A stretch of 64,000 bases of DNA, taken from assembly GCA_964019425.1 (NCBI GenBank), contig OZ025788.1, forward strand, positions 1,488,001 through 1,552,000, given 5' to 3'. Below, one piece after another: positions 30,880-56,874 of the stretch; position 1 is the stretch's first letter; the number at the start of each line of letters is the position of its first letter. The position numbers and the translations under genes were made by a program. This DNA is from Flectonema sp. DT1601. Its lineage: Eukaryota. Under the pieces are notes generated by a model, which was not told where the DNA came from, made no database searches, and saw only the letters and a program-made list of their open reading frames with translations.

Positions 30880-31370
30880 CCCGCAAACCTGCAAACCAAC
30901 ACTCAGACTGGGAACTGCACGAAAGAGAACAGGAATGATACTTAAACAACGTTTAACGTAGATCAATGAAAAGGTAAATATTATAAGAGTATTTTGCCTA
31001 ACAGCGCAATACAGCTTCACGTGGTCGGCCTGGGTTCAAACCCGCCCCGCCCCGGTTGGGTAACTGCATATCACCTTCGGAGTTGTCGAAGTGTCTCTTC
31101 CAACACTCCTGTCTCCATGTGTCCAATTTCAAGGACGCGTGACCATTTCTTTTTTTCTGTTGCCGCTCTTCTTACATCCTCAGGCGGGCCCGCAAACCCG
31201 CAAACCCGCAAACCCGCAAACCCGCAAACCCGCAAACCCGCAAACCAACACTCAGACTGGGAACTGCACAAAAGGCAAGTGAAGTACGATATACTCTTAT
31301 AATATTTAACTTTTCGTTGATCTACGTTAAACGTTGTTTAAGTATTATTTCTGTTCTCTTGTCTTTATTT
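30880..31370. repeat. Rearranged satellite border: short CCCGCAAA tracts (30880-30897, 31189-31246), a duplicated element end, and a ~70-bp inverted duplication
   Basis: GCAAACC-AACACTCAGACTGGGAACTGCAC occurs twice. 30923-30992 is the reverse complement of ~31291-31360 with about 4 mismatches. Confidence 0.8.
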
Positions 31371-31778
31371 CAGAATTATCATTTCACTGTTTCTCTTATC
31401 ATTATTTTATTGTACTCATTTATTCAGGCTAGGAAGGGTCTTAACGCAAAGCGTTTTCCCACCCGCCCTACCCCTGTAACGGTGCCAACCTTTCCCCCGG
31501 CCGATTTTAGGCCGTGGTCGAACATGCAATTGTACAAGCATGCGGTGCCGTTTTCCCATTACCCCTTCGTGAATGAGTTGCTTCGTGTTAACTTGGTTCT
31601 CCTTTGTCTTTCTCATCATCATTTTCTTCAGCTGAGAAAATGGGAAAGCTAAGACGACATGAGGCTTATGATGCTAGTATCTTGTTATGTGGTTAATTCG
31701 TGTGATTGTTTTTATCAGACTCTCCTTTATGACTTTTCCTTTTCAACAGTACTTCACTGAGAATGCCGAGCGGTTCCC
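31245..31778 (+). mobile_element. Putative short non-autonomous YR-type element inserted in the CCCGCAAA repeat
   Basis: Left junction GCAAACC|AACACTCAGACTGGGAAC and right junction GGTTCCCC-GCAAA reproduce the 2-C / 4-C junctions of the full YR element at 52020-56874; no credible ORF. Confidence 0.6.
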
Positions 31779-31811
31779 CGCAAACCCGCAAACCCGCAAA
31801 CCCGCAAACCC
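31777..31811. repeat. Short (CCCGCAAA)n tract
   Basis: About 4 units visible. Confidence 0.95.
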
Positions 31812-32186: not shown

Positions 32187-32598
32187 AACCCGCAAACCCG
32201 CAAACCCGCAAACCCGCAAACCCGCAAACCCGCAAACCCGCAAACCCGCAAACCCGCAAACCCGCAAACCCGCAAACCCGCAAACCCGCAAACCCGCAAA
32301 CCCGCAAACCCGCAAACCCGCAAACCCGCAAACCCGCAAACCCGCAAACCCGCAAACCCGCAAACCCCGCAAACCCGCAAACCCCGCAAACCCGCAAACC
32401 CGCAAACCCGCAAACCCGCAAACCCGCAAACCCGCAAACCCGCAAACCCGCAAACCCCGCAAACCCGCAAACCCCGCAAACCCGCAAACCCGCAAACCCG
32501 CAAACCCGCAAACCCGCAAACCCGCAAACCCGCAAACCCGCAAACCCGCAAACCCGCAAACCCGCAAACCCGCAAACCCGCAAACCCGCAAACCCGCA
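32187..32598. repeat. (CCCGCAAA)n satellite tract with a few 9-bp CCCCGCAAA variants
   Basis: Directly visible, about 51 units. Confidence 0.98.
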
Positions 32599-32617
32599 CT
32601 AGAGATACCCCTTCCAG

Positions 32618-32632
32618 GCTCGCGTTGCTCGC
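32618..32632 (-). other. Helitron 3' subterminal hairpin GCGAGCAACGCGAGC
   Basis: Lies 15 nt before the terminal CTAG; GC-AAC-GC core; identical in the second element. Confidence 0.7.
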
Positions 32633-32729
32633 ACACAATTTTTTTTTTTTAAATCTTTCTGAACAAACCTTATTTTTACAACCAAGTCACGTCTGTTTTT
32701 ATTCCCTGTGTCTAGCTAGGTACCCGTCC

Positions 32730-32798
32730 AGGATTCAAAATTGGACTTAACTTTACGCTCGCTTCGCTCGCGTTAAGTTAAGTCCAATTTTGTATCCT
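32730..32798. repeat. Inverted repeat with ~29-bp arms near the Helitron 3' end
   Basis: AGGATTCAAAATTGGACTTAACTTTACGC / GCGTTAAGTTAAGTCCAATTTTGTATCCT, 2 mismatches; shorter version at 45566-45597. Confidence 0.9.
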
Positions 32799-33296
32799 CA
32801 TCGCAATCTTTTTATTATTCATTTATTACTTTTCTGTCCCAACGGGACGACAAATGAAAAATGTCCTCCCTTAGCTGAAAATGCACACTGCACCCTGTTT
32901 TATCAAGTCATATCACAGAATGGACGAAGATAAGGTTATTCTTTATTTATTGTTTTTGTTTTTCTGAAAGATAGTTATATTAATATGCTAGCACGAAAAC
33001 GACGGCTAGGTTTATGATGATTGGATATGTGGCTTAGGTTATCTGTTTGTTTCATTTGGAAATATTTTATAAACCATTCACAACAGGTTTATCGAACTTG
33101 TATCTGCAATGTGTGCGACCCTGGGATGGAAATATAGGAATTTAGTTATATTAATAAGGTTATCGTTCATTACATTATTTTCAATAAAATAGATATGTGA
33201 GAAGAACTACGGGATGGGGAATAACAGTGGTGAAAAAAGCATCAGCCGATTGCGGGTTTATAGTGCTTCTGTATGTATGTGGGGTGGGTGACTATT

Positions 33297-33882
33297 CTAC
33301 TTCGGCCTCTTGATGCCTTGGGTTCTTCCAGTGGTTGATCTTTGTTTCGCCTGCTGAGGCTTTCACCGCCAGCGCTTCCTTCTGTCGAAAATGGTAGCTC
33401 CTCGAGCGGCCACCCTGCAGGCTATCGAGACATCCCGAGCCGCAGCCTTTACCTCCTGCTGACGTTTCTCAACATCAGTTGCCGCTTCCCCTTCGTCGAA
33501 GAGCAGCCGCCACCTTCCGAGCAGACTCTGCCATTTGTTCCTTCTGCTGACGTTCCCTCAATAGGATCTCCACCTCCAATGGTTCCTTCCTTTCGGGCTG
33601 GTGTGTGTGTGTGTTGTCGTACTCCTTCAGCTCACGTTCCTTTGCCATGACTGCCGAAGCTTGGAGCTTCAACGCTTCTCTTCGACGAAGGGTTGCTTCT
33701 CGAGCAGCCTTTCGAGCTGCTATCTGGAGTTCCTTCTGCTTTAGTAAGTTCACCTCCAAGGCTTCTTTCCTTTGAAGGGCACATTCTCGAGCCTCTATCT
33801 CCTTCAATCGCTTCTGCTCTGGCTCCTTCGCCATGACTGCGTGCCACCGCCGGCGTCTTGCTTCCAAGGTGTCCTTAACCAT
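33297..33882 (-). pseudogene. Diverged, frameshifted duplicate of the RepHel C-terminal coiled-coil region
   Basis: LEARRRRWHAVMAKE...RKEALEVNLLKQKEL...KVAAALRRR matches the RepHel C-terminus (34196-34820). Nucleotide similarity continues to the same stop context (CTACTTCGGCCTCTTGATG). Confidence 0.8.
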
Positions 33883-34195
33883 GATGTTGTTACTGTTGTG
33901 GAATTATATTTTAGATTTGAGTTTAATAATGTTATTCAAAACAGGTTAATACATAAACCCAAAAAATGTGCCGCGTGATCGCGTATTGAACCCTCAGTCA
34001 CAGGAATGCAAGAGCGATTAGTCGACGACCATATTATTATTATTTATTTATTTATTTATTTATTTATTGTGTGTTGCTATCCTAGGATGAAAATAAGGGT
34101 TTATTGTGCATTAACTTAATTTCCGTCCTGCTCAGTGTTCCAAAACGAAAATGTGAACTTCTGTATGTGCTAGTTTTGCGGGTGACTGTTGTTGT

Positions 34196-35831
34196 CTACT
34201 TCGGCCTCTTGATGCGCTGGGATTTTGCGGGGGGTGCTTTCCGCTTCATTGCAGCTGGCTTCTGGGACGAAGTTCCAGGCTTTTCTTTCGCCTGCTTTCG
34301 GGAGGTTCTCACCGCCAGGGCTTCTTTTCGTCGAATGGCAGCTTCTCGAGCGGCCACCCTGCGGGCTATGGAAGCATCCCGAGCCGCAGCCTTTACCACC
34401 TGCTGACGTTTCTCAACATCAGTTGCCGCTTCCCTTCGTCGAAGAGCAGCCGCCACCTTCTGAGCAGACTCTGCCTTTTGTTCCTTCTGCTGACGTTCCC
34501 TCAACAGGATCTCCACCTCCAATGCTTCCTTCCTTCGGGCTGGCGTGTCGAACTCCTTCAGCTCACGTTCCTTCGCCATGACCGGCGGCGAAGCTTCCAA
34601 CTTCAACGTTTCTCTTCGACGAAGGGTTGCTTCTCGAGCAGCCTTTCGGGCCGCTATCTCGAGTTCCTTCTGCTTGAGTAACTTCACCTCCAAGGCTTCT
34701 TTCCTTCGAAGGGCAGATTCTCGAGCCTCAACCTCCAGAGCCAGTGACCTCATTCGCTTCTGCTCTCGCTCCTTCGCCGTGACTGCATGCCACCGCTGGC
34801 GTCTTGCTTCCAAGGGGTCGTTAGCCGTCAGGCGGTATGTATCACGCAACCTGATGAGTGCTTCCTCTGGACTGCGGGACCGCAGGTTGACGTAATGCAG
34901 ACCTAGTGCATGGATGATTTCCCCCAGCTGATTCCAAATGAAGATAGTTCCGTTGGTGTGGTGGGTTAGAAGAAATGAGAAATGGTCGTGAACCTCATTT
35001 TGGTCTTCCGTAAAGAAACACGACTCCGGGAAGAACCCTCCAACTCGTAGCCCGTCTTGCTGTAGTACGACGATTTTTATATGTAGCAGCACCGCGGCTG
35101 CGTCGATTGCCTCGTTCGTCAGCCAAGACCCGTCGGTTCGATATTGCTCGACCCAGGATGAGTCACTACCTGCGCGGACCATCTCTTCGCAGATCTGGTG
35201 TCGGAGGTCTCCATGGGAAGGGATATCCGCATTCGCATACCAGTGGACATCACGGAGCGCATTCTGTATGGCATATAGAAGGCAGTTACCGTCCGATCCT
35301 GTTCGCCGCATCTCGAGCCCAAAGAGATGCCACATGACGTAGGCGTATTCTTGTGATGGGTGAGTGAATGTTGGATCCAAACGGGTTGCTGAACCGAGGT
35401 AAGCCTGAGGATCGAAGGCAGGAAGTTCCATCCTCTTCCGTTTTCGAGCAACTTCTGAAGGCGCACGCGTCGAAGAAGAAGATGGATCCTTTTTTTGTGC
35501 CGCGATCTTGTGCCACACGGTGGACAGCGATTCGAGAGATGTTTTTACTCCGAAGAAAGGTTTCAAATTGATGTAGTGGGTGTGCAGGCCCCCTGCCGTT
35601 TCGCAACTCCACAGGAAGATGACCCTGGAACTCTGCAACAACAGCCATCTGAGTTCTTCATGCACGGTTCTCTGTGAAGCCCCCTCCTCCTCCTTCTTCT
35701 CTGGGAAGGTAACGATCTGACTGAGGCCGTCTTGTTTCAGCAGCACAATGTCTAACTGCAGGATTCTGGAAGCCGCGTCGACTGCTCGATCCGTGAGCCA
35801 TGCTGATCTCCAACTGCTGTGTTCGGAATCC

Positions 35832-35862
<31 letters not shown>

Positions 35863-38800
35863 GGCAACCGTCGTCACTTCTCTGCTGCTGCTCATCTAAG
35901 AGTTGTATCTGCTGACCGATATACTTGCGGAAGCTTTCCGGATCCGAAGTGATGGAAGCAGTATCCACAAACCACGCGGAATCACCGAGCGCAGTGCAGA
36001 TGGCGGAATGCAGACAATCACAGTCAGCCTTGGTGTTTCCGAGGGCCAAGCCGAAGAGGCTTTGCAGCACATGGTCGTAGACATGCATCGGATACGACCG
36101 CTCGCTGTCGAGGCGCACTCCAGGAGCGAGGTATATCTCAGGGCTGAGCCACTTCGGCAGGCTAAGCCCCGCTGTCTGGTCGGGTTCGAAGGTGTCGGGT
36201 ATTCTGGTCCACTCTTCAACTTGCTGTGAAACGCCGACGAACTGCTGCTCTTTGATGTTTTGTTGCTCTTCCACGACAGCGTCCGGGTCTTGCGGTGCGT
36301 CCGTCCACTCGTGGTACTCTTCGACCCCAGCTGGCCTTGCAACGTTGCCCCTCGCTGCCTTCGAAGCTTCTTCAGCGACTCTGCGGATCTCCGCTCGGGA
36401 TCGCGGACTGAGGGGATGGCCGCGGATTGCCTGCTCGACGCTGCTAATGACGTTCAGCTGGACGGGATTCCTGAACGACTCCCTCTTAGCCGGCTGCGTT
36501 GCGACGCGAATATCAGCAGCGTGTCGGACGCGCGTAAATGCCACGTAGGCTTGTCCGTGTGCGAAGAACTCCGATTTCGTCAAGTCAAGCCCAAGACGAT
36601 CAACGGTTTGCCCCTGGAGCTTATTCACTGTGAGGGCAAACGCATTACGCACGGGAAACTGAACACGCTCCATCTCGAAGGGGACTTTTCCTGGTTCCGG
36701 TGTCAGCTTGATCCTAGGGATCAGCACGAACTCCCTTGTCCTGCGGTCCTGGCAATAGAGTACTTTCCGGTGACAGCGGATGACCACCAGCCTCGACCCG
36801 TTGCAGATGCGTGCACCGCTTCCGGAGTAAATGTTCCGAGTGCAGATGATCGGAGAGTTCACCTTGAGCAGCAGCTTTTGGGGAGGCAGCCCTGCGGTGA
36901 CTTGCGACATGTAGTCCTCGGTGGCCAAGTCAGGCGAGGCAGTCTCGGTGCAGCGATTGGCGGCGATGAATTCGAACACCCTGCCTGGGAAGGTATTGAG
37001 GCAAGCAGCGTTTAGCTCGTCGACGTCGCTGTTGAGTAGGGAGGCAATTGCAACGTTCTCGTCGATGATGCCTTCGTCCAGCTGGGGATACACGAAATTG
37101 ATGAGGTCTTGCCGTACGTAGATGCGTTCTCCGGAGTTGCCAATCCTGCCGTACAATCGTGTCCAGCCGTTGATGTCACAATTAACACCCTTCCCGAGGC
37201 CCTGAGTCCACTTCAAGTAACCCTCATCCTGAATCCGCATGCTCTTTGTCAACTCCACCGCCTGAAACCCGTCACCACCCCAGAGATACGATGTATGAAG
37301 CGAAGCATTTAAAGCAGGCATGTCGCCATCTGCCCTCACAATCGGAAGTGTCTGCTGTAAGTCGGCGATGATAATCATGGGGCACCCTCCGAACCGCTTG
37401 TTCCACTTGTGTGAACGGATGCGACGCATGGTCCTGTCGAGCAACTCAAAATGGCGGCGGTCCGTCATTCCTGCTTCGTCCCATAAGATGCAACTGCACT
37501 CCTGCAGCGCCCTCCACTGCTTGCCGTATTCTGTGATGTTGAGCACCTGCAGTTGTTGGTTGTCGTTCAGGACGATGGGGAGTCGGAAGCGCGAGTGAGC
37601 GGTTGTTCCAAGCTCGAGCAAGGTAGCGGCAATTCCCGTCGAAGCAACCGCAATCACACTCCGTGGTACACAGATTCCCTGTTCTCCGCGGGTACTCCTC
37701 GCCCAATTCAGGAAGCAGTTGGCAAGAAATGTTTTACCGGTTCCAGCTGGGGCCTGCACAAAGATGGTGTCACCTGCGCCGCCTCCCTCTGCCTTGCGAA
37801 CCGCGTTCTGCAGCATCTCCAACGCCGCAGATTGGTCGCGGTTGCTGCTTCGGATGAGTACCGCACTCTTTTCGTAGGCAGAGTAGTATTCCTCGGCCTT
37901 CCTCCTAGCAAGCATGACCCCCATTGGGATGGACACTCCTCCGGTCGGCAGCGGCAGCGGAAGCTCTTCGTCGAGATTAACCATCGGCAACCCATCCTCG
38001 TTGCTGAGTAGCTGGTGGATGTCGAGAATGCACTCGCGCTCGCGCTCGGGTGGGATGAATCCAACACCGTGAACCTCCTCTTGCAGCTGCCGCTCCTGCG
38101 CGCTGAGACGCTCGTCGTAGCACATCTTGCCTCTGAATCGCTCCCAAGCGCCCTTGATGCAGTTGAGCATCCCGCAGCTGATCAGAACGGCGAAAAGGTA
38201 CCGAACATACATCGAGGAGTAGCACTTCGCTGCTTCGAGCGCCGACTCCGCCTCCTTGTCGTCGAGAAAGAGCCCAAGTGCTGTCGCAGCAGCCAGCATC
38301 GTGTCGTGAACCACGCCGTCGACCGTCATGGCATCATCGAAGCTCTTCAGGCCTGGGCGCGCGTTGAGGATCAGCCGCAGGCAATACGCTTCGGTGTCAC
38401 GGGGTGATACCCAAAAAATCCTGCCTATTTGAACGTCGGTCCAGCGCCTACCTGTTGTGTCCTTGCGCCGGAAGCGAGATTCTTCGCGCGAATACTCATA
38501 TCCTTGGCGCAGCTTCCACTCACCCTTGACGTAGCTAAAATAGGTGGGGAAGTCGCGGTACAACAGGGTGCGACAACCGTCGGATTGGTTCTTGTCGTTG
38601 AAATTGAACCAAGCCAGCAGTGTGGTGCTTTTGGACGCGACCTTCTCGGCCAACTCATCCACGGTGTCGTCGCTGTTGAAGAAGATGGTCTCCTTCCCCT
38701 TGACGTGGATGTCAAGCCGTTTGACAGCTGGGACGTTGGAGTGTTGAGGCATGCTCAGAAGGCGGCCCGCAGCCTCGCAAGAACCCATGACCCTTGCATT

Positions 38801-41800
38801 CTGGTACTGGGTCACTTCGTCTTGCACTTCCCTCGCACCTTCCTGCTTCAAGACAAAGCTCAGTCCAGGCTCTGCCTTCGTAATGTACTTGAATAAGTAC
38901 CCGACGCAGTCGCCCATGCCGTTGGTTAACTCGACGTTGATGTGAGTTTGGTACCTCATCATCAAGCCGGCGTTGTAGGGAACCACCCATTCGTTCCCCT
39001 GTCCTCTGTGAGTGGTGACGCCTGTCCGACGTCGGCGAATGGTCGAGAACCCGGACACACCTATGTGCGATATGTCCGTGAATGGTTTCGGGAAGTTGTT
39101 CTTGCAGTAGAGTTTCCCATCCTTCCCTTGCTTGTGGCACGGGCAGATCACGCCCTGGCGAGAGCAGTCGTTGTGCACCATCTTCGAAGCAATGAGGCTG
39201 TAGAGGGCTGGCTGCCTTACCGGGTCGGGTAGTTCGGCATGGACCACCGAGTCGATGTCCTCAGCTGCTGCTGGTGGATGCTTGTTCCAGGCGAGGAGGT
39301 GCATGTGCGGAAGTCCCCGCTGCTGATACTCGTAAACCCAGACAATGGCGTTGTTCTTGCCGAGAACCCCGCTTCGGATGTCTTCGCGCAGAGCACGTGC
39401 CTTGCCGTCCCAGACACGCATGATGAGCTCCGGTCGGTCGTTGGGTCTCTGGTTCAAAGCCTCCCCGCCTTCTCGCAAGATCTGCTGGATCTCCGGCCAC
39501 TGGGTGTTGCATGTCATGGTGACGAAGAAGGTTGGTTTGCCGTATTTCGCCATGATCGCAAGCGCGTCTTCCCGCAGCTCTCTCTTCCCGCGGGGTCCGC
39601 CTTTGAACGAAACCGGAAGAATGATGCGTCGGTTTTCGATTGCGGTGGCTGCCTCATTCTGCTGCACCGCCTGCCTGACGTCGCTGGCCGCCGCCTTCCT
39701 GCTGTGCCGAGCTCCAAAGGGTGATCGATACCAGTTGAGACGCAGATGCTCTGCACGTGCCGCCATGTCCAGTATGTACACCTGGGTCAACTTGCCAAGG
39801 CGCAGGAGCATGTTCTTTCCAGTCCTGAGAGGCCGTTCAAACATGTGAAATCCACCGTACTCCGTGGCACTCACGAAGGAGCGCCTGCTGTTATCAGTGT
39901 TTTCGGCAGCATAATCGCCATTGTAATCTACCTCACGGCCAGCGTCGCTGTTGTTGTTTCGGGGACGAAATCTCCTGTACTTGCCTAAACCCCAACCGCA
40001 GTGGAAGACACGCACTGCATCTTCCTGACCACCACCGCTGGCCTTCCACTCCCAAGACGGGGTGGGAAAGATCACGGGGTAACTCAGAATCTCGTACAAC
40101 GGATCTTTCTCATCAATGAACAGCTTCCGACTTCGTGGGGCGGGTACCGATGCCGAATCTCCAAAAAACAACGTGATCTTCCGATTGTCCCTCTTGATGG
40201 AGTCGTGGTCCAGGTCGAGGACGATCCTGATCTCGTCGAAGAACTCCTTCGAGGTGTGATCTTCTGCACGGGACGGCTGGTGGCGCTCAAGGTTTATGCT
40301 GATGGCTATATCTGTCGTTCTACGGTCCCCGTCCTGTTCCTTCGCCAGCGCTTTCTCAGCAGCATCGAGGCACTCTAGGAAGGGGTGCTGCCTGTTGCTG
40401 CTCCCTTTTCTGATGATGACTGCAAGGCGTTTTGCGAAGCCGTGCTCCGTCCCTAACTTGCGGATTTGCGAGTTTGCGTTGTCGAGGTCGCCAGCAATGT
40501 ACCAGCTTTGTCTCGGGTTGGTTTTGTCAATCACGGGATCGGTGATGTGATGTGTCCTGCCCTGAATGGAAACTGACTGGGGACCTGTTGGCTTGGATAG
40601 GCAGCTGCGACGCATCAGCGGAACAGCGAATGACAACCTGCTGTTGACAATGTGCGAGACGCTGCGAAACTTTGATGTCTTCAACATGTCCTCGACTTCG
40701 GGGTGGATGGAGATAAGGTCAAGCTTCGAGGCAGTCCCTGCCGCGCAACACCGTGATGAAGGCTCATAGCAATAGCGCTCAGCCCCGCACCATTCGCACA
40801 AAGTGGGGTCAAGCTGCAGTGGGTTGTACCGAAAATGTGGCAGTTCCGAAATTGGTGTGGGGGATTCGTTCACTTCATCAAGCGTGATGCAACATGACCC
40901 ATGCAACTTCCTTCTCCTTCGTCGGAATCTCCTAGGTCTCTTCCATCCTTCCTGGTCTCCCACTGCCAAGGCTGCCGTTCGTTCAACATCTATCTCCTTG
41001 TCCTGAATCTCCGATCGAACACAGCGCTCAAGGAGTCGCACCCTCTCAGGAATTAGCATCCCACAGATCTCAGCTGCTTCGCGCATTCTGAACACTTCCC
41101 TTGCACTGACAGCCATGTCGGCCTTTATCTGGGTGTTGAATCTTTCTTCCAACAGGCGACGTCCGATGGCAATCCACCAGCCAGTCAATGCACTGAACTT
41201 GGCAGCGATTCCTTGTTGCTGCCATGCACGTATTCCCTCCAGCGGGCGCACTGCTGTGGTGGTGGTGGTGGTGGTGGCTGGCGATGAAGTGTTCTTCCTT
41301 CTTGTCATCGAAGTGATGGCGACAACACCTGCAAGCAAGATGATTGTTGAAGCGGATGCTGTAGCTGAAAGACGGATGTGAGACTTGTACCGAACACCGT
41401 TGTTGCCATCGAATCGAAAGGGGTTCATGTAGCAGGCAAGTATGTGTTTACTAAGACCTCTTGGATCGAAGCTCCTTTCACAGTAACCACACTTCCTTTT
41501 ACAGGCCTTTTCATGTTCTTCCAGGGCTACCAATGTTCTGAGTGGCGATCCACAGTTCTTGCAGTGATTCTGCTGACCGAACTGGTTGCGAAGTGCAAGG
41601 GAAGCAACACATGGAGCATGCCTGCCTGCGACGGTGTCAGCCACCGCATGTTGCATCTGCTTCAAGATAGCTTCAATTTGCGAAAGGTGTGCACCTGATT
41701 TGAGGACGGTATCCACAATCACAGTAAGCCTGCCGATAAGCGCAGCACAGACATTCTTATCATTGTTGTTGTTGTTCATTCCTCCGGGCAGTTGTTGCAG

Positions 41801-42544
41801 TAAGTGCCACCATTTTCTTGCCTGCTGGAGTCGGTACAGGCATCCAACATGCTGGTGTGCCTGGAGATGCAGGAGCTTATTGTGGTATGTTGGGAGCTGT
41901 GCTGATTCCTTTGTCGCATGCAACGCCAGAATAGCAGCTGCAAGAACTGCACATGGATACCCCATACTTGTGTCGTTCTTGGTGGTGGAGGTATAGTATA
42001 AAGGTTTCCATTCTGCTGTTCGTGCGTCAGCCTGGAAGGGATTCCCTGGACAGAATGCAATATGTTTAAAAAGTCGATTTCTCCCAAAGTACAAACCACA
42101 GAAACCACAGGTTCCACTGCACTCAGAAGCGTGCTTCTTTACATATTCAGCAGGGTTGTTGTTGTTGTTGTTGATTCTTCCTGGGTCCGTGAGCTGCAGC
42201 CCACAGTTTGTGCACTTGCCTTGCACAATGGAATCTTGGTACAATAGTCCATCATCGCTGCTGTCATCACTTCCAACCTCGAAGTCCGTCAATATTTCTT
42301 CTTGGAAGTCAAACACTGTTGCAACTGCAGTGGTAGTTGGTGTTACCCTACTGCCTCGTGCAAACTTGCTGGGTGGTTTTGGCAAGCTCCTACCAAAGTC
42401 GAAGTCCATCAATCTTGCCAGTGCAGGGGTCTGTTGTACACTTTGGACCCTGCTGCCTCGTGTAAACATGCTGGGTGGCTTTGGTGCACCCCTTGGCAAG
42501 TCCATCAACATTACTACTGGCTTGTTAGCTGGTTTGTCAGGCAT
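34196..42544 (-). CDS. Helitron RepHel protein (~2780 aa): Zn-finger-like motifs, HUH/Y2 Rep, PIF1-family helicase, two OTU-like domains, basic coiled-coil tail
   Basis: Rep motifs FVTMTCNTQWPEI, EYQQRGLPHMHLL, YLFKYITK. Helicase motifs APAGTGKT, ASTGIAA, WDEAGM, DLQQTLP, QFPVRNAFALTVNKLQGQT, HGQAYVAFTRV. OTU-like motifs ADCDCLHSAI..WLT..HY and SDGNCLLYAI..WLT..HY. First ATG at 42544 follows a T-tract+CAG acceptor. Confidence 0.95.
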
Positions 42545-43373
42545 TTTACTTATTATCACTGAAAAAAACAGGTTAATAAAACATTTTTGAATATCAACTT
42601 AATGTACAATGTAATAATAAAGTGTGCTACTGACTGATGTTCTGTCCTGTGCCAAAAAAAAAAAAAAAAATGAAATTGAAAAAATGGAATTCAAAGATTT
42701 TTCTTTTACTTTTATTGGTTAGATGTGACAAAGTGGAAATAACTGCAACAAAACTTAACTATAACAAAAAGACAGCTTGGCACCTAAAATTTTCTCCACT
42801 CAGGAATTTATGAAGAGGTCAAGAGATAACTATAAAAAATGTGTTCCCATCTTTTTTAGGAGATCTGTAGCAAAAACCTATAGCAAAAAAAATTGAAAAA
42901 ATAAAATTTTTCAGAAAATATTATGAAGAATTTTTTTTTTACCAAATTGGCAACCTTACACCTAAATTTCAAAACCATACCAAAAAAAAATTTTCATCAC
43001 ATTTTATACTTTAAGAAAATGGTTACCCATCTTTTCTAGACCTGCTTGGGCACAAAAATCCAGCATTTTTCCTTAGGCAAAATTTTTTCTTTGTGTTCAA
43101 AAAAAAAAAAAATGAAATTGCTGTAACAAAGGCAAATAACTGCAAAAGTGAAAGAATTAGAGTGAAAAAAAGATCTGTAGCAAAAAAATTGAAAAAATAA
43201 ATTTTTCAGAAAATATTATAAAGGAAAATTTTTTTCTGAAGAATTTTTTTTTTACCAAATTGGCAACCATACACCCACAATTTCAAAACCATACCACTTA
43301 CTAACAAAATTTGTACTCTTTTCCTTGCTGTTTTCTTCTTACTAATTTTCCTGGTTGAAAAACACAAAAAATA

Positions 43374-43455
43374 TGCCGTAACAGGGAATTGAACCCGTGC
43401 CACGGCTACCGAATAGACTTAAGGTCGGTGACCATATCCACTCGGCTATGCAGGC
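43374..43455 (-). ncRNA. tRNA-like (pseudo-tRNA / Pol III A-box + B-box) element inside the Helitron
   Basis: 82 nt; A box TAGCCGAGTGG, B box GGTTCAATTCC, D stem GCC/GGT, ACCGA/TCGGT stem with an oversized loop, mismatched acceptor stem, followed by T6. Confidence 0.6.
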
Positions 43456-44075
43456 CCTGGGATGTTCCATTTTTTATTCCATTTCTTATTTATTTAGTCA
43501 CATCCCCCCCCTGTCTTTCCACTTTATTTTTCTTCATTCTGAGCATTTTATAAACCATTCACAACAGGTTTATCGAACTTGTATCTGCAATGTGTGCGAC
43601 CCTGGGATGGAAATATAGGAATTTGGTTATATTAATAAGGGAATGACCATCTTCATCCATTTTGTATTGTTAAACTAATTAAGACAAAATTAAGAATTGA
43701 ACTGAGGTTATCGTTCATTACATTATTTTCAATAAAATAGAAATGTGAGAAGAACTACGGGATGGGGAATTTGGCGGAACGCAAGCCCCCCCCCCCCTCT
43801 GCCGTATTACATTATACCCTGGTTTTGGTTTCCCAGGGCTCACGATTAATTCAAAATTGAATAACTCGATTCCGTACTGCACTGAATGACAACACGGAAA
43901 AAGAGATGTGTATGCAGCTAAGTTAGAAACATTTATTATAATGTAAAGTATTTACGTCAATCGCAGAGTGTATACCTGCACTAACATTACCTTTAGTCAC
44001 TGTATCTCAGAACTAATGTTAAATTATCGTCTATGATACAAAACATTTGTATTTTACGTACAAACTCGAACAGTT

Positions 44076-44370
44076 AACCCCCCCCCAACCCCCCCAAGGG
44101 GGGGGAGCCACTAATAAAAGCCAACCTCTCCCGTACAAAGCCTGCCTGTCCCGTACAAAGTCCAACCTGAAAAACAAATTTGCTACTAATGGATGATTAA
44201 GCTGGGAAGAGTGCAAGCCCCCCCCCCAACCCCCCCCAAGGGGGGGGAGCCACTAATAAAAGCCAACCTCCCCTGTACAAAGTCTGCCTGTCCCGTACAA
44301 AGTCCAAGTTGAAAAACAAATTTGCTACTAATGGATGATTAAGCTGGGAAGAGTGCAAGCCCCCCCCCAA
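44076..44370. repeat. Tandem ~140-bp duplication containing C7-AA-G7/8 palindromes in the Helitron 5' region
   Basis: CCCCCCCAAGGGGGGGAGCCACTAATAAAAGCCAACCTC...GCTGGGAAGAGTGCAAGCCC occurs twice. Confidence 0.85.
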
Positions 44371-45323
44371 GTTTACTATTTGTGTAGGAAAGACCCCTTT
44401 ACCCAAAAAAAAATGAAATCAAAGATTGCTTTTTCAGAATAGCGAGATGTAACAGAGTGGCAAATAACTGCAAAAGTGAAAGAATTTATTTATTAAAACC
44501 CAAATTGTCTAAACTGTAACAAAAAGACAGCTTGGCACCTAAAATTTATTAAAAAGGAAAAAATTATTTCAAAAAAAAAAATTTTGCTAAATTGGCAACC
44601 ATACACCTAAATTTCAAAACCATACCAAAAAAAATTTTTCATCACATTTTATACTTTAAGAAAATGGTTACCCATCTTTTCTAGACCTGCCCGGGCGCAA
44701 AAATCCAGCATTTTTCCTTAGGCAAAATTTTTTCTTACATTTCTTACTTACTTCCTACTGAAGAAAATTGGCAGCTTAAATTTGCCCAGAAGTGCTACAT
44801 AAGCATTGGTAGTGGAAAGGTGGCAAATAACTGCAAAAATGAATGGGATTATTTATTACAACCCAAATTGTCTAAACCACAACAAAAAGACAGCTTGGCA
44901 CCAACTAAAATCTTCCTTCCACCTAGAATTTGTGAAGGCTTTTCAAGACCGATAGGTTGAGAGATAACCATAAAAAAGGTGTACCCATGTTTTTTTGGAG
45001 GTGAGTGGCGCAAAAAGCAGTAAAAAATAAAAAAAAAAAATTTCATGACAAAGGCAAAAGCAGCAATTTTCTTTCCACAAACGCATCAGACTGTCATTTG
45101 GTGGCGCCAACTTGCTACAGGTAAAACTCCACTTTTCTTTCCGCAATGTGCAACACCAGCCAACACTTACATAGCATTTAGAACCAGACCTTCTTGCGGG
45201 AAGGCACAGAAGCCTCATTCCCAGTGTGTAATTAGGTGAGGCCTGGCCTGGGTACCTGGCCCAGGACTTGGTGGATTTCCTCAGAACCCAAAATATCCCC
45301 GATGCTGACAACTATATAGGAGA

Positions 45324-45427
45324 AACCCGCAAACCCGCAAACCCGCAAACCCGCAAACCCGCAAACCCGCAAACCCGCAAACCCGCAAACCCGCAAACCC
45401 GCAAACCCGCAAACCCGCAAACCCGCA
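45324..45427. repeat. (CCCGCAAA)n spacer, 13 units, between the two Helitrons
   Basis: 104 bp of perfect repeat. Confidence 0.98.
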
Positions 45428-48400
45428 CTAGAGATACCCCTTCCAGGCTCGCGTTGCTCGCACACAACTTTTTCTTTTTAAGCTTTCTGAACAAACATTA
45501 TTTTTACAACCAAGTCACGTCTGTTTTTATTCCCTGGCTAGGTACCCGTCCAGGGTACAAATTTGAACTTAACTTCACGCTCGCGTAAAGTTAAGTTTGA
45601 AAGCAACTTTTTATTATTATTACTTTTCTGCAATTTTTATTTATAAATAAGTTTTCGATAAGGTGGGAAGTAACGGACTGGGAGCTTTTGGCTCCTGCCC
45701 TATTCCTCCTGATGTAAACATTCTTTTTTTTTTTTTTTTTTCTTTTTAACAGGCCCAAAGGGCGACAATGAAAGATGCTGACCAAGGAAAAATATTCAAA
45801 TGAATTTTCGTTTCAAAGAAACGAACAGGATTAAGGGAGAGGCAGAAAAAAAAAAAAAAAATAATATGAAGAGGAAATAATCAAACATGAAAAAAAAAAA
45901 AAAAATAAAAATAAATAAATAAACGTTATATATAAGCAATTTCTTTTTTCTTTCGCAATTTTTTATTTATTTATTACTTTCCTGTCCCAACGGGACGACA
46001 AATGAAAAATGTCCTCCCTTAGCTGAAAATGCACACTGCACCCTGTTTTATCAAGTCCTTTGTTTTTGTTTTTCTGAAAGATATCTGTAGTTGTTGTTAT
46101 ATTAATATGCTAGCACGAAAACGACGGCTAGGTTTATGATGGTTGGATATGTGGCTTAGGTTATCTGTTTGTTACATTTGGAAGTATTTTACAACAGGTT
46201 TATCGAACCTGTATCTGTATCAATGTGTGCGACCCTGGGATGGGAATATAGGAATTTAGTTATATTAATAAGGTTATCGTTCATTATTCCCAATGAAATA
46301 GAAATGTGGGAAGAACTATGGGATGGCAGAACGCAGCCCCCCCCCCCAACCCCCCCCAAGGGGGGAGCCACTAATAAAGGCCAACCTCCTGAAAAAGAAT
46401 CAAGAAAAAACAAAAATGCCCTCACCCAAGGTCGAACTGGACGGTTTACAGCCATTTTGGGGTTTGTAAAGAATGGTTAGTTCGAAAGAAAGATTTTTTC
46501 TGAAGAATTTTTTTTTAACTACCTACTAAATTGGCAACCATACACTTAAATTTCAAAACCATACTAAAAAAGAAATTTCATCACATTTTATACTTTAAGA
46601 AAATGGTTACCCATCTTTTTTAGACCTGCTCGGGCACAAAAATCCAGCATTTTTCCTTAGGCAAAAATAAATCTTACTTACTTCCTACTGAAGAAAATTG
46701 GCAGCTTAAATTTGTTTGCAGGAAAAAAGTAAGCAGCTAAGATTTGCTTGTGGGAAGAAAATAAGCAGCCAAAATTTGCTTGCGGGAAGAGAATCAGCAG
46801 CCAAAATTTGCTTGCGGGAAGAAAATAAGCAGCTAAAATTTGCTTGCGGGAAGAAAATAAGCAGCCAAAATTTGCTTGCGGGAAGGGAATCAGCAGCCAA
46901 AATTTGCTTGCGGGAAGAAAATAAGCAGCCAAAATTTGCTTGCGGGAAGAAAATAAGCAGCTAAGATTTGCTTGCGGGAAGAAAATAAGCAGCTAAAATT
47001 TGCTAGCGGGAAGAAAATAAGCAGCCAAAATTTGCTTGCGGGAAGAAAATAAGCAGCTAAGATTTGCTTGCGGGAAGAAAATAAGCAGCTAAAATTTGCT
47101 TGCGGGAAGAAAATAAGCAGCTAAAATTTGCTAGCGGGAAGAAAATAAGCAGCCAAAATTTGCTTGCGGGAAGAAAATAAGCAGCTAAAATTTGCTTGCG
47201 GGAAGAAAATAAGCAGCTAAAATTTGCTTGCGGGAAGAGAATCAGCAGCCAAAATTTGCTTGCGGGAAGAAAATAAGCAGCCAAAATTTGCTTGCGGGAA
47301 GAAAATAAGCAGCCAAAAATTGCTTGCGGGAAGAGAATCAGCAGCCAAAATTTGCTTGCGGGAAGAAAATAAGCAGCCAAAATTTGCTTGCGGGAAGAAA
47401 ATAAGCAGCTAAAATTTGCTTGCGGGAAGAAAATAAGCAGCCAAAATTTGCTTGCGGGAAGAGAATCAGCAGCCAAAATTTGCTTGCAGGAAGAAAATAT
47501 GCAGCCAAAATTTGCTTGCGGGAAGAAAATAAGCAGCCAAAATTTGCTTGCGGGAAGAAAATAAGCAGCCAAAAATTGCTTGCGGGAAGAGAATCAGCAG
47601 CCAAAATTTGCTTGCGGGAAGAAAATAAGCAGCCAAAATTTGCTTGCGGGAAGAGAATCAGCAGCCAAAATTTGCTTGCAGGAAGAGAATCAGCAGCCAA
47701 AATTTGCTTGCGGGAAGAAAATAAGCAGCCAAAATTTGCTTGCGGGAAGAAAATAAGCAGCCAAAAATTGCTTGCGGGAAGAGAATCAGCAGCCAAAATT
47801 TGCTTGCGGGAAGAAAATAAGCAGCCAAAATTTGCTTGCGGGAAGAGAATCAGCAGCCAAAATTTGCTTGCAGGAAGAAAATATGCAGCCAAAATTTGCT
47901 TGCGGGAAGAAAATAAGCAGCCAAAATTTGCTTGCGGGAAGAGAATCAGCAGCCAAAATTTGCTTGCGGGAAGAAAATAAGCAGCCAAAATTTGCTTGCG
48001 GGAAGAAAATAAGCAGCCAAAATTTGCTTGCGGGAAGAGAATCAGTAGCCAAAACTTGCTTGCGGGAAGAAAATAAGCAGCTAAAATTTGCTTGCGGGAA
48101 GAAAATAAGCAGCTAAAATTTGCTTGCGGGAAGAAAATAAGCAGCTAAGATTTGCTTGCGGGAAGAGAATCAGCAGCCAAAATTTGCTTGCGGGAAGAGA
48201 ATCAGCAGCTAAAATTTGCTTGCAAGAAGAAAATTAGCAGCCAAAATTTGCTCAGGGGTGCTACATAAGCATTGGTTGCAGAAAAGTGGCAAAAATGAAA
48301 GGAATTATTTATTAAAACCCAAATTGTCTAAACCATAACAAAAAGACAGCTTGGCACCAAAACTCTAAAACCTATTCTCCTCAGGGGATTTGTGAAGCCT

Positions 48401-49313
48401 TTTCGAGATCGATAGGCCAAGGGATAACCATAAAAAAGGTGTAACCATGATTTCTTGGAGGTGAGTGGCACAAAGAGCAGTAAAAAAAAATATCCCGTGA
48501 CAAAGGCAAATAACTGCAAAAGCAGCAATTCTCTTTCCGCAAACGCCCCCCCGTGGGTCATCAGGTCATTTGGTAGTGCCAACCTGCAACAGGTTAACAT
48601 GCAACACCCTACCCTACTCTACCCCACTCTACCCTACTTTCTTCCCGCAATGCGTGACACCATTCAACACTTACGTAGCACTTAGCACCAGGCCTGCTTG
48701 CGGGGAGAAACAGAAGCCCCATTCCCAGTACGGAAGTAGCTAGGCCTGGCGCTTACATAGCACTTCTGGGCGACCTAATATTATCCCTGTAATGCGTGGC
48801 ACTATTACGTAGCACTCAGCACCAGGCCTGCTAGCAGGAAGAAACAGAAGCCTCATTCCCAGTACGGAAGTAGCTAGGCCTGGCCAGCTTACAGTGCTGC
48901 GTAAGTTCTGACTGGCAAACAACTGCAAAACTTTTTTCTCCACACAGAAATTTGAAGACTTTTTGGGGCCGATAGATCGAGAGATAACCATAAAAAAAGC
49001 AAAAAGTGGTAAAAAAAAAAAAAAAAATTCAGTGACAAAGGCAAATTTCTTTCTGCAAACGCCCGCCGTGGATCATCAGACTGTCATTTGGTAGCGCCGA
49101 CTTGCCACAGGTCAATATGCAACGCTACTTTTCTTTCTGTAATGCGTGGCACCAGTCAACACTTATGTTGCACTTAGAACCAGACCTTCTTGCGGGAATG
49201 CAAAGAAGAATTAGTGTGTAATTAGGTGAGGCCTGGCCTGGGTACCTGGCCCAGGACTTGGTGGATTTCCTCAGAACCCAAAATATCCCCAATGCTGACA
49301 ATTATATAGGAGA
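45428..49313 (-). mobile_element. Non-autonomous Helitron (3,886 bp) of the same family
   Basis: Same 5' TCTCCTATATA and 3' GGGGTATCTCTAG termini, homologous subterminal regions, no RepHel ORF, same insertion phase. Confidence 0.92.
46690..48252. repeat. 32-bp minisatellite AAATTTGCTTGCGGGAAGAAAATAAGCAGCCA, about 48 copies, inside the non-autonomous Helitron
   Basis: Directly visible, with variant units (GAGAATCA, GCTAA). Confidence 0.95.
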
Positions 49314-52021
49314 AACCCGCAAACCCGCAAACCCGCAAACCCGCAAACCCGCAAACCCGCAAACCCGCAAACCCGCAAACCCGCAAACCCGCAAACCCGC
49401 AAACCCGCAAACCCGCAAACCCGCAAACCCGCAAACCCGCAAACCCGCAAACCCGCAAACCCGCAAACCCGCAAACCCGCAAACCCGCAAACCCGCAAAC
49501 CCGCAAACCCGCAAACCCGCAAACCCGCAAACCCGCAAACCCGCAAACCCGCAAACCCGCAAACCCGCAAACCCGCAAACCCGCAAACCCGCAAACCCGC
49601 AAACCCGCAAACCCGCAAACCCGCAAACCCGCAAACCCGCAAACCCGCAAACCCGCAAACCCGCAAACCCGCAAACCCGCAAACCCGCAAACCCGCAAAC
49701 CCGCAAACCCGCAAACCCGCAAACCCGCAAACCCGCAAACCCGCAAACCCGCAAACCCGCAAACCCGCAAACCCGCAAACCCGCAAACCCGCAAACCCGC
49801 AAACCCGCAAACCCGCAAACCCGCAAACCCGCAAACCCGCAAACCCGCAAACCCGCAAACCCGCAAACCCGCAAACCCGCAAACCCGCAAACCCGCAAAC
49901 CCGCAAACCCGCAAACCCGCAAACCCGCAAACCCGCAAACCCGCAAACCCGCAAACCCGCAAACCCGCAAACCCGCAAACCCGCAAACCCGCAAACCCGC
50001 AAACCCGCAAACCCGCAAACCCGCAAACCCGCAAACCCGCAAACCCGCAAACCCGCAAACCCGCAAACCCGCAAACCCGCAAACCCGCAAACCCGCAAAC
50101 CCGCAAACCCGCAAACCCGCAAACCCGCAAACCCGCAAACCCGCAAACCCGCAAACCCGCAAACCCGCAAACCCGCAAACCCGCAAACCCGCAAACCCGC
50201 AAACCCGCAAACCCGCAAACCCGCAAACCCGCAAACCCGCAAACCCGCAAACCCGCAAACCCGCAAACCCGCAAACCCGCAAACCCGCAAACCCGCAAAC
50301 CCGCAAACCCGCAAACCCGCAAACCCGCAAACCCGCAAACCCGCAAACCCGCAAACCCGCAAACCCGCAAACCCGCAAACCCGCAAACCCGCAAACCCGC
50401 AAACCCGCAAACCCGCAAACCCGCAAACCCGCAAACCCGCAAACCCGCAAACCCGCAAACCCGCAAACCCGCAAACCCGCAAACCCGCAAACCCGCAAAC
50501 CCGCAAACCCGCAAACCCGCAAACCCGCAAACCCGCAAACCCGCAAACCCGCAAACCCGCAAACCCGCAAACCCGCAAACCCGCAAACCCGCAAACCCGC
50601 AAACCCGCAAACCCGCAAACCCGCAAACCCGCAAACCCGCAAACCCGCAAACCCGCAAACCCGCAAACCCGCAAACCCGCAAACCCGCAAACCCGCAAAC
50701 CCGCAAACCCGCAAACCCGCAAACCCGCAAACCCGCAAACCCGCAAACCCGCAAACCCGCAAACCCGCAAACCCGCAAACCCGCAAACCCGCAAACCCGC
50801 AAACCCGCAAACCCGCAAACCCGCAAACCCGCAAACCCGCAAACCCGCAAACCCGCAAACCCGCAAACCCGCAAACCCGCAAACCCGCAAACCCGCAAAC
50901 CCGCAAACCCGCAAACCCGCAAACCCGCAAACCCGCAAACCCGCAAACCCGCAAACCCGCAAACCCGCAAACCCGCAAACCCGCAAACCCGCAAACCCGC
51001 AAACCCGCAAACCCGCAAACCCGCAAACCCGCAAACCCGCAAACCCGCAAACCCGCAAACCCGCAAACCCGCAAACCCGCAAACCCGCAAACCCGCAAAC
51101 CCGCAAACCCGCAAACCCGCAAACCCGCAAACCCGCAAACCCGCAAACCCGCAAACCCGCAAACCCGCAAACCCGCAAACCCGCAAACCCGCAAACCCGC
51201 AAACCCGCAAACCCGCAAACCCGCAAACCCGCAAACCCGCAAACCCGCAAACCCGCAAACCCGCAAACCCGCAAACCCGCAAACCCGCAAACCCGCAAAC
51301 CCGCAAACCCGCAAACCCGCAAACCCGCAAACCCGCAAACCCGCAAACCCGCAAACCCGCAAACCCGCAAACCCGCAAACCCGCAAACCCGCAAACCCGC
51401 AAACCCGCAAACCCGCAAACCCGCAAACCCGCAAACCCGCAAACCCGCAAACCCGCAAACCCGCAAACCCGCAAACCCGCAAACCCGCAAACCCGCAAAC
51501 CCGCAAACCCGCAAACCCGCAAACCCGCAAACCCGCAAACCCGCAAACCCGCAAACCCGCAAACCCGCAAACCCGCAAACCCGCAAACCCGCAAACCCGC
51601 AAACCCGCAAACCCGCAAACCCGCAAACCCGCAAACCCGCAAACCCGCAAACCCGCAAACCCGCAAACCCGCAAACCCGCAAACCCGCAAACCCGCAAAC
51701 CCGCAAACCCGCAAACCCGCAAACCCGCAAACCCGCAAACCCGCAAACCCGCAAACCCGCAAACCCGCAAACCCGCAAACCCGCAAACCCGCAAACCCGC
51801 AAACCCGCAAACCCGCAAACCCGCAAACCCGCAAACCCGCAAACCCGCAAACCCGCAAACCCGCAAACCCGCAAACCCGCAAACCCGCAAACCCGCAAAC
51901 CCGCAAACCCGCAAACCCGCAAACCCGCAAACCCGCAAACCCGCAAACCCGCAAACCCGCAAACCCGCAAACCCGCAAACCCGCAAACCCGCAAACCCGC
52001 AAACCCGCAAACCCGCAAACC
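49314..52021. repeat. (CCCGCAAA)n satellite, about 338 units
   Basis: Perfect 8-bp repeat. Confidence 0.99.
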
Positions 52022-52208
52022 TAACTACAGCGGGGAACCGGAACTTCGAAGTACAGCCGTCAGCATCATTTTCTCGCCATCGTTTGGCGCATCGATACAT
52101 CCTATCAGAATATATTTCATTTTATTTAGAGCTGTTTAACTCATGTTTACCTTTCCTTTTCTTTCAGCCGACGGGTTCGACCTATTAAACACTTAAACAA
52201 AAAGAAAA
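52020..52208 (+). repeat. Split direct repeat A1 (189 bp)
   Basis: Identical by eye to 56406-56594; contains a pyrimidine tract+CAG just before ORF1. Confidence 0.95.
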
Positions 52209-53441
52209 ATGGGTGATACTTATGACTTCGAATTTCCTAACTCATTAGTTACGCTATGGGGAAATACCGGTGAGGAACTGCTACCGAGAAGACACATAAA
52301 TATGCCAGATGTATTGGGTCGGATCCCATGGGCTGATTGGACAAGTGAAGCAGGCAAAATGATGATGATAATGGTGCTTGCAAGGTGCCTTGGGTGTGAT
52401 AGAGAAGTAATTCAAGGTATTTCACCGAGAAAGGTTGCAATATTAATTGACGCGCTGCGAGGTCGGAATAATTTAATTGTTGATAGCATCGCCGAAGCTG
52501 TACAGAACGGGACACTAGCAAGCCTTTCTGGGATGCCTCAAGATCCGTTTAGAAAAGTTGAAGCGATTGTAACGACAGTTGCAAATAGACAAAGCCAGCA
52601 AGACGAGAATCTCACAGGACTGTATCGTAGTACCGCTCAAGAATTTGCGAAGCATGAAGGAGCGATCCGTGCAGTAAGTAGCGAAGCAGCAAATGCCACG
52701 GCCGCCGCGACAACAGCTGTTAAAAGTACCAATGATAGACAAGATTCGCTCGAGTCACGAACGGATGCTTTCGCAACAGATGTACTGAGTAGGCTGAACA
52801 GGCAGTCAAAGCTTATTGAGGAGCAGCAGGAAATGATCTCTAAGCAAGATAAACAAATTGCAAACTTGATGCGGGCGTCGTACAGATACGTCCACCCAAT
52901 GAGCGCGCAACCGGCGCCTCGCACGACTGCACCTGAACAGCCGGAGCCAAGGGCTCGGTATGAAGAACCGACTTCCGCTGAAGAAACAAGAATTCACAAT
53001 CCAGTCTCGCATACTGTCCGTTCCGTTGCGGAAGACCCTGATAGGTGGATGGAGTACGCAGATGCCAGTAACTTCCAACTGACGGAATTAATTCGAGAGT
53101 TGCGAACATGGGTTCCTAGCAAGAAAGGGGATCTGCAAGATGGGATGGAGGCGGTGATCGGTGCGATCGAAGTCATCTTGCATCCGGAACGGGACGCTGA
53201 AGACGCTGTGCTTGCCCTTGCCGACAGCTTGCAGGTATTAAGGTGTAAGGCAAGGGATGGATGGAAGGCGGCTGAAGCTTTTAAAGGTGAACTCTGGAGG
53301 GAACAGAATGTTGCCCCACGTTATGCGAAAGCATGGCGGGCGTCTAGCACAGCTAAGGTGAAGTCAAACTACGCTGCGCGGAAAGAAGTCTCTAGAGGTT
53401 CAAAAAACGAAGCTTCAAAGGGCGGCAGGTCCCATCAATGA
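52209..53441 (+). CDS. ORF1, gag-like coiled-coil protein of the YR retrotransposon
   Basis: 410-aa first ORF directly after repeat A1, with a central coiled coil and basic C-terminus; assigned by position. Confidence 0.75.
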   Translation: MGDTYDFEFPNSLVTLWGNTGEELLPRRHINMPDVLGRIPWADWTSEAGKMMMIMVLARCLGCDREVIQGISPRKVAILIDALRGRNNLIVDSIAEAVQNGTLASLSGMPQDPFRKVEAIVTTVANRQSQQDENLTGLYRSTAQEFAKHEGAIRAVSSEAANATAAATTAVKSTNDRQDSLESRTDAFATDVLSRLNRQSKLIEEQQEMISKQDKQIANLMRASYRYVHPMSAQPAPRTTAPEQPEPRARYEEPTSAEETRIHNPVSHTVRSVAEDPDRWMEYADASNFQLTELIRELRTWVPSKKGDLQDGMEAVIGAIEVILHPERDAEDAVLALADSLQVLRCKARDGWKAAEAFKGELWREQNVAPRYAKAWRASSTAKVKSNYAARKEVSRGSKNEASKGGRSHQ

Positions 53442-56146: not shown

Positions 56147-56874
56147 GGCAGGCCAACCGGTGCCGCTACTCGGACTGCTCACTCACATGGCTTTCTGCCA
56201 CGCTCAGCCGATAGCGACCACCACCTGCGGTCTACTTACCTCACTTCGTGAAAAGAATTTGTGAACTCTTATAGTTTAATTTCTCTATCCTTCCTAGTGA
56301 TAGACGAGCTACTTAGTTTTATCCATAGTTTCATGTTTTACTATTACATTTCTTCTACTCTTATCTTTCCTTCCTTTCTTTCAGGCTGTACAGGGGTTAT
56401 GGTTCCCTAACTACAGCGGGGAACCGGAACTTCGAAGTACAGCCGTCAGCATCATTTTCTCGCCATCGTTTGGCGCATCGATACATCCTATCAGAATATA
56501 TTTCATTTTATTTAGAGCTGTTTAACTCATGTTTACCTTTCCTTTTCTTTCAGCCGACGGGTTCGACCTATTAAACACTTAAACAAAAAGAAAACCCACC
56601 CACCGACCCCCTCGGCAGGCCAACCGGTGCCGCTACTCGGACTGCTCACTCACATGGCTTTCTGCCACGCTCAGCCGATAGCGACCACCACCTGCGGTCT
56701 ACTTACCTCACTTCGTGAAAAGAATTTGTGAACTCTTATAGTTTAATTTCTCTATCCTTCCTAGTGATAGACGAGCTACTTAGTTTTATCCATAGTTTCA
56801 TGTTTTACTATTACATTTCTTCTACTCTTATCTTTCCTTCCTTTCTTTCAGGCTGTACAGGGGTTATGGTTCCC
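56147..56874 (+). repeat. 3' repeat block B1 (56147-56407), A2 (56406-56594), 19-nt C-rich spacer, B2 (56614-56874)
   Basis: Direct sequence comparison; B copies are 261 bp and identical by eye. Confidence 0.95.

Follow-up and report, generated by a model that had tools for sequence, protein, structure and literature searches.

The window examined here, a stretch of 64,000 nucleotides from Flectonema sp. DT1601 (assembly GCA_964019425.1, contig OZ025788.1, positions 1,488,001 to 1,552,000 of the forward strand), has as its right half an array of the octamer (CCCGCAAA)n broken up by mobile elements. Two of these elements, the Helitron transposons H1 and H2, are the subject of this study. The host is a diplonemid by the sequence of its PDI gene, whose product shares 55% identity with a Diplonema papillatum protein and 88.9% with a Flectonema neradi transcript product in its cluster. 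Runs of the array occupy positions 31189-31246, 31777-31811, 32187-32598, 45323-45427, 49313-52021 and 56873-64000, all with a single polarity, and no plus-strand TTTGCGGG run is found in the window. The runs lengthen and become purer rightwards, up to the window edge (Table 1).

Table 1. Elements, domains and repeat runs of the octamer array region, numbered by position in the window.
Feature	Position	Strand	Description
(CCCGCAAA)n array left of H1	32187..32598	.	four CCCCGCAAA variants within
H1, autonomous Helitron	32599..45323	-	12,725 bp; 5'-TC...CTAG-3'; at GCGGGTT|TGCGGG, no target duplication
Long subterminal hairpin of H1	32731..32798	-	H2 counterpart at 45566-45597
RepHel open reading frame (P0001)	34196..42544	-	intact, intronless, 2782 aa
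OTU-like protease domain	35051..35296	-	in-frame, after the helicase, aa 2417-2498
PIF1 helicase core	37223..37843	-	aa 1568-1774
Rep (HUH) domain	39293..39817	-	motif 2 YEYQQRGLPHMH at aa 1071 (Helitron 'L' type), YLFKY 133 aa downstream
Three CxxC-x11/12-H-x3-C (C2HC-like) fingers	41432..42109	-	aa 146, 328 and 352
Spacer between H2 and H1	45324..45427	.	13 perfect octamer units, 104 bp, 0 mismatches
H2, non-autonomous mosaic relative	45428..49313	-	3,886 bp; ends and phase as H1
32-bp minisatellite in H2	46690..48252	.	48.8 copies
(CCCGCAAA)n array	49314..52021	.	338 perfect units
VIPER/TATE-structured tyrosine recombinase (YR) retroelement	52022..56874	+	complete, apparently intact; 100% identical split repeats; at GGG|TTT
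(CCCGCAAA)n array	56875..64000	.	~890 units, one substitution; continues past the window edge
Element B, non-coding	31247..31778	+	532 bp; ends GGTTCCC like the YR element, same register

Read on the minus strand, both Helitrons start with TCTCCTATATA, finish with GGGGTATCTCTAG and are flanked by GCGGGTT| and |TGCGGG; on the C-strand the unit CCCGCAAA is cut after base 6 on each side of H1 and of H2. Excising either element restores a perfect array. When boundary pairs were varied (start +/-3, end -4 to +3), only two restored it: TC...CTAG at T|T, or a 1-nt slide to C...CTAGT at T|G, which forfeits the TC/CTAG ends. A preliminary description of this DNA had reported two array-flanked Helitrons in one orientation and phase with exact excision, and our analysis bears out the coordinates, strand, ends and phase, as well as the T|T target that it proposed. 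The 5'-TC and CTRR-3' termini without target-site duplication (TSD) are those of ordinary Helitrons (HLE1), and in 2/2 copies T|T is used and not the usual HLE1 target A|T. The same description called the ends canonical, which is correct for TC...CTAG and less so for the terminal hairpin: the last 62-63 nt of H1 and H2 fold no better than shuffled sequences (z -0.27 and 0.37), with stems of only 3 bp, and a strong hairpin lies ~130-200 nt upstream of the 3' end (z -8.7 in H1, -3.5 in H2). Subterminal inverted repeats of 11-18 bp, as in the Helentron/Helitron2 group (HLE2), are absent from both elements, the best being 8 bp and beginning 52 nt in. The sequence GCGAGC-N3-GCGAGC (32599-32800) occurs in the terminal 40 nt and in the loop of the long hairpin of H1; it resembles the target GCGGG and is a possible candidate for a RepHel binding motif. 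We rejected the idea that the octamer repeat is itself part of the Helitron, since the flanks differ (412, 104 and 2708 bp) and an internal G-strand run of at least 7 is absent outside the open reading frame (ORF).

Elements inside long perfect repeats are error-prone in assembly and the junctions are known from the assembly alone, so that repeat-mediated misjoins could in principle account for the arrangement. We consider such an artefact very improbable. The four junctions are base-exact and share one phase, and what appears to be a single contig of 31,788 bp carries three neighbouring host genes together with an N-terminal fragment of RepHel. Contigs from independent sequencing runs (four of the five listed were compared with H1) cover parts of H1 at a depth of ~2 with 0-1 differences. 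A misjoin could moreover shuffle the order of elements but not create the type of junction between element and repeat.

The octamer has a GC content of 62.5%, contains no AT dinucleotide on either strand (0 per kb in the array; the DNA around it has 57-69 per kb) and confines T to its G-strand. Orientation is therefore forced under any rule that requires a 3' T. The informative signal is that Helitrons with HLE1 ends are found twice at non-AT sites in a GC-rich array. For the HLE1 transposon Helraiser, the published account gives non-AT sites in 46 of 1751 insertions, with a preference for an AT-rich context (PMC4778049); A|T is thus favoured but not obligatory. Two non-AT events at that rate would have p ~7e-4, which argues that the target rule of the H1/H2 family has changed. 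Our preferred reading, which we hold to be probable with moderate confidence, is that this HLE1-type family prefers the G-rich strand of (TTTGCGGG)n as its insertion target, a repeat that is itself probably the telomere-type repeat of the host.

Alternatively, the family may require no more than a dinucleotide (N|T or T|T) and insert genome-wide, its copies accumulating or surviving in the gene-free array and agreeing in phase by luck. Such agreement costs only 1/2 to 1/3, TT is reported as the commonest non-AT site of Helraiser (PMC4778049), the array is rich in T|T (250 TT/AA per kb against 191 in host genes), and selection would presumably remove insertions outside the array, since the window is gene-dense. 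Under so relaxed a rule, however, the GC-rich tract must have been hit twice independently, at points 104 bp apart, and the Helraiser account describes no local hopping over 701 sites (PMC4778049). The remaining ~35 kb of non-array DNA in the window also hold no other copy or terminus of the family. We regard this explanation as unlikely.

The RepHel protein of H1 (P0001) carries the Helitron_like_N, PIF1 and OTU domain matches in a single ORF, with a second OTU-like copy near aa 2127-2381. No APE endonuclease is matched at E<=0.01, in agreement with the preliminary description. In motif 2 of the Rep domain, L is diagnostic of Helitrons and S of Helentrons according to PMC4067079; P0001 has the HLE1 form (L, RGLPH, no F/Y-x-R just before; IVWVYEYQQRGLPHMH) and lacks the S of HLE2. 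Comparison with Helraiser gives E=2.8e-138, and the best-scoring relatives outside the protein's own cluster are 28-37% identical in two large searches. A search of the ESM Atlas returned only generic Helitron and reverse transcriptase (RT) clusters. The 3' untranslated region (UTR) of H1 contains a duplicate (32960-33700 versus 33900-34830, 86% identical) of the final ~550 nt of the RepHel ORF region.

From the 208 near-full-length matches among 263 RepHel matches, we built a tree of 76 sequences (the top 30 and every fourth of the remaining near-full-length ones; 1024 columns, FastTree, midpoint root, drawn within these matches without an HLE2 or Paramecium outgroup). In it P0001 is sister to seven unnamed proteins (P0007, P0009, P0004, P0006, P0166, P0167 and P0187) with a support of 0.999. 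The C2HC finger pattern is found in 4/8 proteins of this clade, three of the four lacking it having almost no N-terminus, and in 1/93 other matches whose N-terminus reaches 150 aa or more. Pfam zf-C2HC_2 scores the finger region at E=0.011, under the cut-off, and the fingers are known by their pattern; they are a candidate recognition module. A C-terminal OTU domain is scored by Pfam in P0001, P0166 and P0167. The P0001 cluster has 19 members, of which the 15 listed, two of them full-length, lie on 9 contigs of 32-837 kb with 94.8-99.9% identity. Wherever a contig holds several fragments of this cluster (5 contigs), the pieces do not overlap one another, which suggests one RepHel copy per contig. 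Judged by these sequences, the RepHel family is of HLE1 type, young, multicopy and dispersed. The P0009 cluster (29 members, 15 of them listed) occurs on at least 13 contigs, which measure 0.15-1.8 Mb.

Homology to H1 covers 1829 of the 3886 bases of H2, leaving 2057 without, and the 14 aligned segments differ by 4-18% substitutions plus many indels. The termini are spared, with 2 differences in the first 100 nt and none in the last 40 nt. H2 also carries duplicated left-end pieces, and tblastn finds no RepHel remnant in it. In-place decay of a duplicate explains these features less well than the separate insertion of a non-autonomous lineage that RepHel has kept mobile.

The preliminary description had allowed that both copies might have arisen by one segmental duplication. 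Under such a single original insertion, H2 would have formed by unequal exchange and in-place decay, or H2, spacer and H1 would have travelled as one read-through unit, and the junctions would not be independent. The two elements are adjacent, co-oriented and have both ends in common, and repeat arrays recombine readily. Read-through of the 3' end is also described as established for Helitrons (PMC4778049). Decay of 4-18% should however hit the 104-bp spacer, for which the probability of 0 changes is 0.005 at 5% lineage divergence and 0.07 at 2.5%, and it would not spare the termini. H2 is moreover a mosaic of rearranged pieces that includes a satellite of its own and unique DNA, contigs of one sequencing run (X3) hold further deletion and indel variants, and even for a composite unit the two inner junctions would have to have arisen within the repeat. 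Taken together, the spared termini, the flawless spacer and the mosaic structure of H2 disfavour a single duplicated insertion, which we judge improbable.

The array hosts a second class of site-specific element beside the Helitrons. The YR retroelement has a layout of the VIPER/TATE kind; the closest named relatives of its recombinase are unannotated D. papillatum proteins (49-52%), and the cluster of its RT comprises 4 members, on 4 contigs. RepHel-bearing and YR-bearing contigs are of similar size, an agreement to which we gave no weight. Element B, with a degenerate second left end at ~30898, is likely a non-autonomous partner of the YR element, judging from the ends and register that they share. 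Both sit at AAA[CC]CGC, that is, GGG|TTT on the G-strand (two full elements and one degenerate junction). In Leishmania, TATE elements are described as occupying the GGG|TTA position within the telomere hexamer (PMC6681497), and the internal junction of the YR element reads GGTTCCCTAAC, which includes CCCTAA. This TATE-like register, the T3-GC-G3 form of the octamer, the array length of more than 7 kb, its purity and the rise of that purity to the window edge make it likely that the octamer is a telomere-type repeat. The preliminary description took the array for a satellite; a plain satellite is the less likely identity for it. Another diplonemid is reported to have 118 chromosomes in 62 Mb (PMC13598402), and contigs of 0.2-0.8 Mb can therefore be chromosome-sized in this group.

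Several observations weigh against targeting of a telomere-type repeat. Read away from the genes and towards the window edge, the strand is rich in C, the polarity opposite to that of a canonical telomere on the right-hand side, which leaves the telomeric status unproven; the array block may be interstitial, an end-fusion remnant, of unusual polarity, or non-telomeric. A single copy on each large contig would be expected of random dispersal no less than of a location at chromosome ends. The sample consists of two copies 104 bp apart at one locus, which cannot separate targeting of the octamer repeat from targeting of T|T. Agreement in phase has a chance of 1/3 under N|T and 1/2 under T|T and is weak evidence, so that a caveat already attached to the preliminary description (n=2, three possible sites per unit under a 3'-T rule) is upheld. 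Homogenisation of the array could weaken the argument from the flawless spacer. The single-sequence fold of the finger region has a mean pLDDT of 39 and was not used, so that the finger model is one of pattern only. Pairing of a guide-like kind between termini and target is not above shuffled sequences in the first and last 300 nt (p 0.23-1.0); one 10-nt target match in the 3' UTR of H1 (p 0.015, one of seven regions tested) is a lead only.

Searches beyond the window yielded no flank of another copy. Contigs of the four runs reach neither terminus of H1 and show no flank, and the exact 3'-end pattern has 0 matches in metagenome contigs. The octamer repeat occurs in metagenome contigs at 56 loci in runs of 20-108 bp, with 0/56 matching elements of the window (blastn, tblastn), and its pattern has 0 matches in viral contigs. 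Scans for related loci kept 1 viral and 80 genome loci, mostly prokaryotic Pif1, and the six best RepHel-like loci (L057-L062) score best against ordinary HLE1, none falling in the P0001 clade. The inference of sequence-specific homing to the repeat, made in the preliminary description, remains the best reading of the locus and is unproven as long as no flank of another copy has been seen.

If the H1/H2 family does home to the repeat, the Helraiser model suggests how. RepHel would nick the TC end and peel off a single strand, the circle would close at CTAG|TC, and a single-stranded target would be nicked before T and joined without duplication (PMC4778049). The target would be the T-bearing G-strand when single-stranded, as an overhang, a loop or a replication-fork template. 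Recognition might be provided by the clade-specific N-terminal C2HC fingers or by tethering to a host repeat-binding protein. The benefit to the element would be a multicopy and harmless landing site, shared with the TATE-like element. A bolder version is possible, and we offer it tentatively: a canonical-ended HLE1 lineage may independently have turned to strict homing, at one phase and by means of zinc fingers of its own, to the G-strand of (TTTGCGGG)n, a telomere repeat not described before. Repeat targeting may then extend to all of the unnamed clade in which C2HC fingers and OTU fusions occur. Were this true, a eukaryotic rolling-circle transposase with sequence specificity would be to hand, encoded by an intact natural element.

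The preliminary description knew such behaviour mainly from retroelements, a view now outdated by the telomere-capping Helitrons of Paramecium aurelia (Arnaiz et al., 2026, PMC13085455), which are described as a third RepHel clade with CCAA 3' ends and C-strand insertion. Like the H1/H2 family, the Paramecium elements are reported to have large intact RepHel ORFs, repeat on both sides in variable lengths, a fixed orientation without target duplication, satellite-laden derivatives without an ORF and internal repeat blocks of one polarity (PMC13085455). Unlike them, the H1/H2 family has HLE1 motifs, TC...CTAG ends, G-strand T|T insertion and an octamer target. None of the three traits of the Paramecium class is matched by H1 and H2, the two being set apart by description and not by direct protein comparison. 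Telomeric position is shown over many ends in Paramecium (PMC13085455), whereas here n=2 and the telomeric status is inferred. Insertion of Helitrons into telomeric repeats is thus already known, and H1 and H2 look like a convergent HLE1, G-strand, fixed-phase variant; in the literature searched we found no HLE1-type, TC/CTAG-ended, G-strand, fixed-phase Helitron in Euglenozoa.

With HLE1 elements such as Helraiser (PDB 7LCC; PMC4778049, PMC11417382), H1 and H2 share 5'-TC, CTAG-3', the lack of a TSD and a 3' flanking T, and the RepHel of H1 shares RGLPH and the combination of Rep and Pif1, as far as these accounts go. They differ in a 5' flanking T and not A, a GC-rich repeat target and no strong hairpin in the last 60 nt, and the RepHel of H1 in its N-terminal C2HC fingers and a best relative 36% identical. 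The OTU domain is in-frame and C-terminal in this RepHel, whereas HELIANO places it upstream of RepHel (PMC11417382). The T|T target and OTU cargo recall HLE2, but H1 and H2 lack the subterminal inverted repeats of at least 11 bp described for that group, and the RepHel of H1 has no APE domain and has L, not S, in motif 2 (PMC4067079). The comparison with TATE of Leishmania braziliensis, which shares layout and GGG|T register (PMC6681497, PMC12278014), concerns the neighbouring YR retroelement and not the Helitrons. Helitron-derived subtelomeric expansions are reported in cnidarians (PMC11934779), and in D. papillatum TATE and Helitron ORFs are reported, uncharacterised (PMC10161547); a search of that paper's supplement found no mention of Helitrons or of a telomere repeat.

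Helitrons were for long regarded as having almost no target specificity beyond A|T or T|T, and Paramecium showed one divergent class at telomeres. If our preferred reading is confirmed, repeat homing has evolved anew in a lineage of ordinary HLE1 elements, with the other strand as its target and one fixed base as its insertion point. The RepHel of H1, intact and recent, is close enough to Helraiser, whose structure is solved, that target choice would then be testable by domain swaps. The octamer would likewise be the first candidate telomere-type repeat for a diplonemid: in open-licence papers, a whole-word search for the octamer gave no match, and a search for a diplonemid telomeric repeat (including TTAGGG) found none. 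Outside eukaryotes, the bacterial IS91 and IS200-IS605 HUH transposons use tetra- or pentanucleotide targets in single-stranded DNA, with guide pairing in IS605; H1 and H2 would resemble them in an HUH nick-and-join reaction into a short defined single-stranded target, and guide pairing of the IS605 type is not seen in them.

Further features lie to the left of the Helitrons. The open frame at 2-20333 spans 6,777 codons built largely on a 99-bp repeat (a 33-aa Thr/Gln/Pro-rich unit, ~199 copies) and is, by its sequence, a giant mucin-like gene that begins before the window; co-oriented genes follow. Directly before the arrays, a frameshifted remnant at 29462-30800 has the motifs LLAVDEL and WECAGHPRLL without a Pfam match, and we take it to resemble a P-loop NTPase of the RHS/Crinkler type. 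Rfam gives 0 matches across 19600-57000. A 375-bp unique segment at 31812-32186 lies between two arrays, and its excision does not restore the phase; with its CTAG/TCGA-like edges it was considered as a third mini-Helitron and rejected, since removal leaves phases 3 and 7 and neither H1 nor H2 shows homology to it. Around the first array, 30923-30992 is an inverted copy of 31291-31360 (94%), and a GCGGG|CCCGC micro-palindrome at 31184-31193 opens the first perfect array; the two together are possibly the scar of a fold-back or end fusion.

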